This document shows, piece after piece, positions 31,359-31,467 of a stretch of 64,000 nucleotides of DNA. Source of the stretch: Escherichia coli (lineage in GTDB: Bacteria > Pseudomonadota > Gammaproteobacteria > Enterobacterales > Enterobacteriaceae); assembly GCF_013122565.1 (NCBI RefSeq), contig NZ_CP053258.1, one strand, 5' to 3'. A program made the position numbers and the translations under genes. The notes under the pieces are model-generated. The model saw nothing but the letters and a program-made list of their open reading frames with translations, did no database searches and had not been told where the DNA came from. Positions within the stretch are counted from its first letter, which is position 1, and each line of letters opens with the position of its first letter.

Positions 31359-31398
31359 TCCCCTCGCCCCTCTGGGGAGAGGGTTAGGGTGAGGGGAA
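31359..31398. repeat. GC-rich imperfect palindrome (box-like intergenic repeat)
   Basis: cccctcgcccctctggggagagggttagggtgagggg: G/C-tract palindromic unit between convergent yhfS and frlR. Confidence 0.4.
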
Positions 31399-31420
31399 TG
31401 TGCGGGATGTAAAATTCAGT

Positions 31421-31467
31421 GCGCCAGCATCGCCGGATGCGATGCTGGCGCATCTTATCCGGCCTAC
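31421..31467. repeat. REP (repetitive extragenic palindromic) element
   Basis: gcgccagcatcgccggatgcgatgctggcgcatcttatccggcctac closely matches the E. coli REP consensus (GCCGGATGCG...CTTATCCGGCCTAC). Confidence 0.65.

Follow-up and report, generated by a model that had tools for sequence, protein, structure and literature searches.

A BoxC element and a lone REP side by side in the yhfS-frlR gap of Escherichia coli: a probable 3'-end module of two convergent operons

What ends the transcripts of two operons that run towards each other across a gap of 151 bp without a classical terminator? This question is raised by the gap between yhfS and frlR in a stretch of 64,000 nucleotides from Escherichia coli, which we call the window and which over positions ~31000-31800 has 100% identity to E. 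coli ATCC 8739. The gene yhfS (CDS 30233..31318, + strand) is the end of the yhfZ-yhfS module and frlR (CDS 31470..32201, - strand, stop codon 31470-31472) is the end of frlABCDR. The yhfS coordinates come from the open reading frame list and from the RefSeq annotation of ATCC 8739, which is identical here, and those of frlR from the open reading frame list and RefSeq annotation. The two genes are convergent and the gap is 31319-31469. A preliminary description had placed a GC-tract unit and a REP in this gap, and both are present there with coordinates within a few bases. The RNA of the gap is predicted to fold much more stably than its shuffles (z = -6.0 for the + strand, z = -5.1 for the - strand). 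An Rfam search of the gap found nothing above the gathering score; the only hit apart from noise was naRNA4, which is derived from REP325, with 30.5 bits against the 59.5 of that threshold. The answer that we consider likely is that the gap is made of two unrelated, catalogued dispersed repeats of E. coli which lie side by side and would act as the 3'-end module of the two convergent operons. Both repeat families, and the yhfS-frlR locus itself, are already in the literature.

Going by its sequence, the GC-tract unit belongs to the BoxC elements of type A, and its K-12 orthologue is catalogued as TMECO 15 and as HPG1 38. The motif was first named BoxC (Bergler 1992), was rediscovered as the PIT element (Hoyne/Maher 2000), and was described by Holder et al. 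2015 as TMECO with the consensus CCCTCNCCC N3-6 GGGNGAGGG N3 GGGNGAGGG[GTC-] (PMC4666352). The core in the window, CCCTCGCCCCTCTGGGGAGAGGGTTAGGGTGAGGGG at 31361-31396 on the + strand, matches the regular expression of this published consensus and falls into TMECO 'type A mm' and into HPG1. When the same expression was run on 18 K-12 loci, 23/23 TMECO copies were found at their published coordinates, and the window copy was found as well. Table 1 of Holder et al. lists 23 K-12 copies, among them no. 15, 'A mm', at 3,504,892-3,504,857 (PMC4666352). The K-12 frlR-yhfS gap, 3504784-3504934, encloses this copy, which is the orthologue of the one in the window. The locus was also entered by Kaplan et al. 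2016 as HPG1 no. 38, 'frlR >>> 74 | 3504863 | 56 <<< yhfS', a putative G-quadruplex/hairpin switch (PMC5100583). In addition, the core in the window is identical in sequence to K-12 TMECO nos. 9, 16, 19, and 22. The unit is present once in the 64 kb of the window, for which shuffling gives an expectation of 0 matches, and a 56-nt query taken to the complete E. coli genomes had matches in 5,425 of 5,426 of them, at a median of 19 places per genome and at 18 in ATCC 8739. The preliminary description had suggested a search for further copies and a comparison with box-C, and both came out decisively in favour of a repeat, because there are many genomic copies and the family is a known one.

The window copy resembles the rest of the family in that it is an exact match to the consensus, has the TTA second loop that defines type A and one mismatched triplet (the 'mm'), lies between genes in a multi-copy family of which 23/23 K-12 copies are intergenic, and partly matches the left-flank consensus. 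It differs in that its first loop has TCT and that of K-12 has TTT, in that its left flank departs from the family consensus and pairs with its own right flank instead, and in that it is a solo type A and not an A+B inverted pair. None of these differences is essential. By gene context, the 18 K-12 BoxC loci are 7 convergent, 9 tandem, and 2 divergent, and in the K-12 tandem contexts no bias was found in the orientation of BoxC to the upstream gene (2 canonical vs 3 complement).

On the + strand the core consists of a C-block (31361-31369), a loop (31370-31374), G-block 1 (31375-31383), the TTA loop (31384-31386), G-block 2 (31387-31395), and a last G (31396). It had been described as an imperfect palindrome, which is correct as far as the C-block pairs with G-block 1, but the unit is more than that: a second, directly repeated G-block follows. 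The triplex and G4 proposals rest on this arrangement of a C-block with two direct G-blocks. In ViennaRNA folds the C-block is able to pair with either G-block, and folding that takes G-quadruplexes into account prefers the hairpin if the C-block is present. In an alignment of 17 type-A copies the conserved region reaches past the core, by ~20 nt on the left side (consensus AAAAnnGnGCnCGnACGGTC) and by a few nt on the right side (GAA(C/A)A). The left flank of the window copy, AAATTCCGTACTGAACGGTC at 31341..31360 on the + strand, was delimited from this alignment and from the RNA fold. It fits the consensus in part, and the right flank retains only GAA of an element that has been described as a ~56-bp unit. 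The conserved flanks would extend from ~31341 to 31411, and they form an outer stem in the RNA fold, 31343-31351 with 31401-31409. The right flank together with the spacer, GAATGTGCGGGATGTAAAATTCAG at 31397..31419 on the + strand, gives on the - strand the tail CTGAATTTTA behind a 14-bp hairpin that is described below. Towards yhfS, 42 nt separate the end of the stop codon from the BoxC core. A 9-nt direct repeat, AAATTCCGT and AAATTCAGT, is found on either side of BoxC and was considered as the target-site duplication of a MITE. It was rejected because O157:H7 does not have the left copy and BoxC abuts trpS there.

The second element is a REP. The published definition of a REP is an imperfect palindrome, 30-40 nt long, whose stem has a mismatch and whose foot carries GTAG on its 5' side, and which is extragenic and present in high copy number (Ton-Hoang et al. 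2012, PMC3333891). By its sequence the element at 31432-31467 on the - strand is a REP with all of these defining features: a single core, GCCGGATGCGATGCTGGCGCATCTTATCCGGCCTAC, that reads 5'-GTAGGCCGGATAAGATGCGCCAGCATCGCATCCGGC-3' on the - strand and was identified by pattern scan, by repeat finding, and by its paralogues. Its layout on the - strand is GTAG-GCCGGAT-AA-GATGC...GCATC-GC-ATCCGGC. The arms, 31432-31445 and 31450-31463, are 86% complementary with AA opposite GC in the stem, and the GTAG at 31467-31464 (CTAC on the + strand) is 2 nt past the frlR stop codon. Among the matches listed, the median was at least 34 places per genome, and 1,733 records had at least 40. A canonical REP at 31421-31467 had been proposed earlier; the REP features and the end hold, and the start has to be moved since it took in 12-14 nt of flank and the core begins at 31432. 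The best paralogues, which come from genomes without the frl operon, have an identical 36-nt core and lie at yhjE-yhjD and loiP-speB, each in the z2 position of a BIME. We take the inner part of the window REP to be z2-like and its outer arms, CCGGAT, to be y-like, based on the consensus sequences of these classes and on the context of the paralogues. With the z2 class of REP/PU elements it shares the 36-nt imperfect palindrome, the GTAG foot, the AA/GC mismatch, and the extragenic position just past a stop codon, and it differs from them in the y-like outer arms and in being alone without an inverted partner. A pattern scan found no second REP in the yhfS-frlR gap. Single REPs of this kind make up 84/584 in K-12 (PMC3333891). 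The comparison with BIMEs that had been suggested therefore ended with a lone REP and not a BIME: there is one REP only, and the left arm at 31420-31433 is a copy of the inner 14 nt without a foot or GTAG.

This left arm belongs to a perfect 14-bp inverted repeat, TGCGCCAGCATCGC and GCGATGCTGGCGCA, at 31420..31452, with arms at 31420-31433 and 31439-31452 and a loop of 5 nt. Its stem has 10 G-C pairs, and the repeat extends over the REP's 5' half. Predicted folds gave ~-29.5 kcal/mol for the 14-15 bp hairpin and ~-21 kcal/mol for the canonical REP fold, and thus the 14-bp hairpin is predicted to dominate on both strands and to out-compete the canonical REP fold. The paralogous REPs are preceded by GTGCGCAT(T) and the flank in the window reads GTGCGC-CAGC-ATC, in which the extra bases perfectly complement the inner 3' half of the REP. 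We infer that this extension arose by template switching that 'perfected' a quasi-palindrome. Another possible source of the REP flank is the spacer of the alx-sstT BoxC pair, with which it has 9 nt (CCAGCATCG) in common. The REP had been named as a possible target of REP-associated transposases. TnpA-REP needs the mismatched REP fold (PMC3333891), which according to the energies given above the perfect hairpin would probably displace, and this argues against such a target here.

How, then, would the two operons end? The preliminary description had stated that the gap has no hairpin with a T-run. This is so only in part: a scan for terminator-like structures does flag one hairpin on the frlR-sense strand, namely, the 14-bp stem followed by the tail from the BoxC flank and spacer. 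That scan gave 1 match in 1 kb, which is inside the shuffle expectation of 1.3 +/- 1.2. The tail after the palindrome reads CUGAAUUUUA in the frlR sense (- strand) and UCUUAUCC in the yhfS sense (+ strand). Intrinsic terminators have a U-tract of 7-8 nt immediately after the stem; in the frlR sense the U-tract is short (4 U) and is offset by 5 nt from the hairpin. Beyond the hairpin in the frlR sense comes a C-rich, G-poor tract, made up of the spacer and the complement of BoxC (31370..31409, - strand), which has 22 C and 3 G in 40 nt and is a candidate rut-like region. Supplementary file 2 of Adams et al. 2021 records a Rho termination region at K-12 3,504,972 (+), 'antisense yhfS', with a Rho score of 3.64 and p = 1.3e-6. 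This K-12 position, 3504972, maps to window ~31281, that is, 90-130 nt beyond the C-rich tract in the frlR sense, at a resolution of 800-nt windows only. In the Term-seq data of the same study no 3' ends are recorded in the gap across three growth conditions (Adams et al. 2021), in which both operons are probably poorly expressed.

These features recall a published model in which a stem-loop, often a REP, protects the 3' end, a rut site with more C than G comes next, Rho terminates downstream, and exonucleases trim the transcript back to the hairpin (Dar & Sorek 2018, PMC6061677; Peters 2012). REP325 is partly a Rho-dependent terminator and a stabiliser as well (bioRxiv 10.64898/2026.03.23.713779). 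The earlier suggestion that the elements act as mRNA stabilisers or transcription barriers is therefore borne out to the extent that it fits published models and that a Rho termination region lies just beyond the elements. We propose that on the frlABCDR mRNA a REP-derived hairpin would start 2-6 nt past the stop codon, would block 3'-to-5' exonucleases, and with its tail of CUGAAUUUUA would be a weak intrinsic terminator. The hairpin would be near enough to the frlR stop codon to hinder terminating ribosomes. For REPs <16 nt from a stop codon, reduced translation of the preceding gene has been reported, and this hairpin belongs to that class by its distance of 2-6 nt. Polymerases that read through would copy the C-rich complement of BoxC and Rho would then halt them within the antisense 3' end of yhfS. 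On the yhfS mRNA the BoxC hairpin, and after it the palindrome with UCUUAUCC, may serve as protective 3' structures. At the level of DNA, BoxC and the REP would be quasi-palindromes prone to template switching or other rearrangement. Since BoxC has no orientation bias, any contribution that it makes to a rut site would be incidental to the frlR locus.

Compared with the Rho-dependent 3' ends of that model (Peters 2012; PMC6061677) and with REP325, the frlR side has the same succession of a stop codon, a hairpin without a proper U-tract, a tract with more C than G, and a BCM-sensitive region. It differs in two respects: the K-12 data show no steady-state 3' end at the frlR hairpin, and the C-rich tract is the complement of BoxC, is half self-complementary, and may fold back. 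With bidirectional intrinsic terminators the gap shares a single palindrome that faces both operons and occupies the position which a hairpin, AAAAGAGGGCCGAAGCCCTCTT, has in Atlantibacter and UBA3516. It differs from them in the weak U/A tracts of the E. coli palindrome and in the Rho dependence that is recorded downstream of it.

Three forms of the locus were found in E. coli. In the first, which is that of the window and of 2,951 of the 5,426 genomes, the order is yhfS, BoxC-REP, frlR. In the second, seen in O157:H7, the entire yhfZ-yhfS module is missing and the order is trpS, BoxC-REP, frlR. In the third, seen in Nissle 1917 and O152:H23, yhfS is followed by yhfL and the entire frl module is missing together with BoxC and the REP (~window 31319-36562); this deletion ends at the stop codon of yhfS, at a distance of 42 nt from the BoxC core. 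Among the 5,426 E. coli genomes no empty BoxC site was found at the frlR locus, BoxC and the REP always accompany frlR, and wherever frlR is present they are at least 96% identical. Because their presence tracks frlR, the two elements travel with frlR and lie on the seam of two accessory modules, and there is no sign of recent mobility of BoxC or the REP at this locus. Two kinds of variants were seen. O157:H7 has two changes in the 14-bp stem, both of them transitions that retain G-U pairing in the + strand RNA. E69, the GTDB representative of E. coli, has clustered substitutions that leave the left flank of BoxC a perfect complement of the right flank; this allele is absent from the RefSeq complete genomes, where the best identity was 90% by blastn.

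Related genera were searched for FrlR with one genome per species, which gave 24 loci, 16 of them with close FrlR relatives (79-97% identity), 15 of these outside E. coli. A plain hairpin terminator, AAAAGAGGGCCGAAGCCCTCTT, lies directly past the frlR stop codon in Atlantibacter, Pantoea eucrina, Mixta, and UBA3516, a MAG of the Enterobacteriaceae; in Atlantibacter and UBA3516 a convergent trpS comes after this hairpin. Phytobacter and Kosakonia have, in this order, frlR, a REP 9 nt past the stop codon, a BoxC-like element, and trpS. This is the order of E. coli O157:H7 with both elements in the opposite orientation. The BoxC-like element of these two genera is in varied states of decay: the copy of P. 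diazotrophicus has lost one G-block, and in P. massiliensis only TTAGGGTGAAGG remains. Since the elements of Phytobacter and Kosakonia are oriented oppositely to those of Escherichia, the two lineages acquired them independently.

Several other explanations have to be weighed against a 3'-end module. One is that BoxC and the REP are neutral relics of selfish or slippage-driven spread, which are tolerated in a convergent gap and have no function for the flanking genes. Published work gives BoxC no function (PMC4666352) and plasmid tests of PIT elements showed neither promoter nor terminator activity, per Holder et al. (PMC4666352). This explanation would also account for the visible decay of the Phytobacter copies at the same site, for the lack of orientation bias, and for the degenerate REP remnants elsewhere in the window. 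The second REP that had been placed at 47322-47352 is REP-derived but is a degenerate y-type remnant, in the argD-yhfK gap, which has no CTAC and whose arms are 82% complementary. A REP-like palindrome had further been placed at 10890-10920; its actual site is 10865-10893 (GCCGGATA...TATCCGGC) and those coordinates were ~25 nt off. In the nudE-mrcA gap, the repeat AAAAGGCG/CGCCTTTT fell outside the criteria of the terminator scan. Against neutrality, a gap of the ancestral type has a dedicated bidirectional terminator, so some 3'-end structure would be needed after its loss. In addition, both elements are as well conserved in all frl-bearing E. coli as stated above, and both stem changes of O157:H7 preserve G-U pairing on the + strand RNA, which with n=2 is a weak argument. 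On balance we consider it unlikely that the two elements are neutral relics.

Another explanation is that their main role is at the level of DNA, where single-stranded BoxC as a triplex or a G-quadruplex/hairpin switch would stall replication or promote rearrangement and in this way create the boundary between the modules. Single-strand oligonucleotides of 'type A mm' form a stable triplex in vitro with a Tm of about 74 C, and TMECO loci vary more than control loci (PMC4666352). CD spectroscopy of a type-B (HPG2) oligonucleotide indicated switching between a G-quadruplex and a hairpin (PMC5100583). The gap is moreover the exact junction of the three genome configurations, and the clustered substitutions of E69 make the flanks of BoxC perfectly complementary. 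On the other hand, in vivo DMS probing and CD/NMR of duplexes did not support a triplex in double-stranded DNA, and in earlier tests PIT elements had no effect on replication in vivo (both per PMC4666352). The copy at this locus is also stable, as its identity across the genomes with frlR shows, and the deletion of the frl module ends outside BoxC. A main role in the DNA itself seems to us rather improbable.

It is still less probable that the 14-bp palindrome is a true bidirectional Rho-independent terminator that alone ends both operons. Its GC-rich stem is followed by candidate U-tracts on both strands and it lies in place of the Atlantibacter intrinsic terminator, but both tracts are short or interrupted, the Rho-dependent region downstream on the frlR-sense strand implies readthrough, and the stem is without a recorded Term-seq 3' end.

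The preliminary description had treated BoxC and the REP as one composite element, which is contradicted by the comparison of the 18 K-12 BoxC loci. Only 3/18 have a REP within 400 bp (frlR-yhfS, pstB-pstA, and fimH-gntP), at spacings of 30, 36, and 44 nt with unrelated sequences, and at pstB-pstA the REP is on the opposite side of BoxC. The layout of fimH-gntP resembles that of frlR-yhfS, with BoxC, 30 nt, and then a z2-like REP, and its spacer has a different sequence. Both families favour 3' intergenic space, and co-occurrence at 3/18 is probably unremarkable. That the two were moved together as a single composite mobile element, for example by a REP-associated tyrosine transposase, is hardly credible, because, although frlR-yhfS and fimH-gntP share a type-A BoxC, 30-36 nt, and a z2-like REP pointing away, with a GTGCGC motif before the REP at both, the other 15/18 loci have no REP inside 400 bp, sides and spacers vary, TMECO showed no association with mobile elements in the study of Holder et al. 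(PMC4666352), the relative orientations in Phytobacter and Kosakonia are different, and the lone REP, if out-competed by the perfect hairpin as predicted, would be without the mismatched stem that TnpA-REP requires.

Two adjacent but unrelated repeats that would serve as a 3'-end module therefore remain our preferred explanation. As a discovery the locus is of little weight, and its value is that of a worked example of how a convergent gap without a classical terminator can be assembled from dispersed repeats. It also offers BoxC, an element without an assigned function, a testable context, namely, a C-rich complement between a protective hairpin and a mapped Rho region. For the genome of E. 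coli, BoxC and the REP mark the seam of two accessory modules, yhfZ-yhfS and frlABCDR, that are variably present among lineages. A more far-reaching proposal, which we regard as quite doubtful, is that the trpS/yhfS-frlR gap is a preferred landing site that was colonised separately by REP and BoxC in Escherichia and in Phytobacter/Kosakonia. The 'perfecting' of quasi-palindromes would fit such a landing site, and the 4-nt CAGC insertion and the flank conversion of E69 are candidate traces of it. If this were a rule, REP and BoxC would target or replace the terminator hairpins of convergent genes. If true, an intrinsic terminator would have given way to a Rho-dependent module in which a protective hairpin is combined with a C-rich rut tract, and this would be the first cellular role for BoxC.

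Two accessory modules, yhfZ-yhfS at about 23750-31340 and frl at about 31319-36562, lie on either side of the BoxC element (core 31361-31396) and the z2-like REP (31432-31467, - strand), and these neighbours vary independently of each other among E. coli. In O157:H7, yhfZ-yhfS is absent and therefore BoxC directly adjoins trpS, while in Nissle 1917 and an O152:H23 strain BoxC, the REP and frlRDCBA are absent and thus yhfL directly adjoins yhfS. In an evenly spaced genome listing, roughly 54% had both modules, 7% were without yhfZ-yhfS and 38% were without frl. In O157:H7 strain 493/89 (L020, 4947-6559), the annotation marks frlD and frlC as pseudogenes that contain internal stops.

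The region between trpS and yhfZ is polymorphic too. The gap in the window (23750-23908) is 160 bp and is without the 130-bp BIME, consisting of a y REP and an inverted z-type REP, that is found in ATCC 8739 (L023, 23630-23760). This is a BIME presence/absence polymorphism adjoining the trpS terminator. SNPs close by also differ, and the window does not match ATCC 8739 along its whole length.

Downstream of frlR in other genera, a plain hairpin terminator, AAAAGAGGGCCGAAGCCCTCTT, is found in some (among L030, L033-L036 and L038), and in Atlantibacter and UBA3516 trpS is convergent with frlR at this hairpin. In Phytobacter and Kosakonia (L027-L029 and L040) a REP and a BoxC-like element, decayed to varying degrees, are found 3' of frlR in the orientation opposite to that in E. 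coli.

The BoxC allele of E. coli E69 (L026, 3300-3370) carries two substitution clusters. One changes the left flank from CCGTACTGAACGGTC to CCGCACCGCACATTC, which is perfectly complementary to the right flank, and the other degrades G-block 2, with GGAGGAT in place of TTAGGGT. The pattern resembles the outcome of a template switch or a conversion, and the allele was found in none of 5,426 RefSeq genomes.

BoxC is flanked on both sides by a 9-nt direct repeat, AAATTCCGT at 31341-31349 and AAATTCAGT at 31412-31420, which is overlapped by the inverted pair CGTACTGAA/TTCAGTGCG. The direct repeat was rejected as a BoxC target duplication because the left copy is missing in O157:H7. The string CCAGCATCG in the left extension of the REP (31424-31432) recurs at the alx-sstT BoxC locus (L011) within GGCCAGCATCGGTGCG, inside the spacer that separates a type-A from a type-B BoxC copy, and GTGCGC-like motifs are seen repeatedly in BoxC right flanks and likewise in z2 REP linkers. 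These recurrences are either coincidental or a hint that the flanks have sequence in common. A 51-codon TTG-initiated ORF that runs across the REP and BoxC (31334-31489, - strand) is almost certainly a repeat-derived artefact.

Other REP-like sites are present in the window. The argD-yhfK gap has, at 47306-47352, a degenerate y-type REP, GTCGGATGCGGCGTGAATGCCTTATCCGAT, in which CTAC is absent and the arms are 82% complementary, preceded by a z-type head remnant, tgcctgatgct (- strand); the pair resembles the decayed remains of a BIME, and the genes on its two sides are convergent. The nudE-mrcA gap has a REP-like palindrome, GCCGGATA...TATCCGGC (10865-10893), followed by an inverted repeat, AAAAGGCG/CGCCTTTT (10923-10944), that looks like a small bidirectional terminator and was not flagged under the criteria of our terminator scan of this gap.

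A published BCM-sensitive Rho termination region at K-12 3504972 (+), which corresponds to window about 31281 (-) (Adams et al. 2021), lies antisense to the yhfS 3' end. Its presence implies that part of the frl-sense transcription continues past both BoxC and the REP in K-12 grown in LB.
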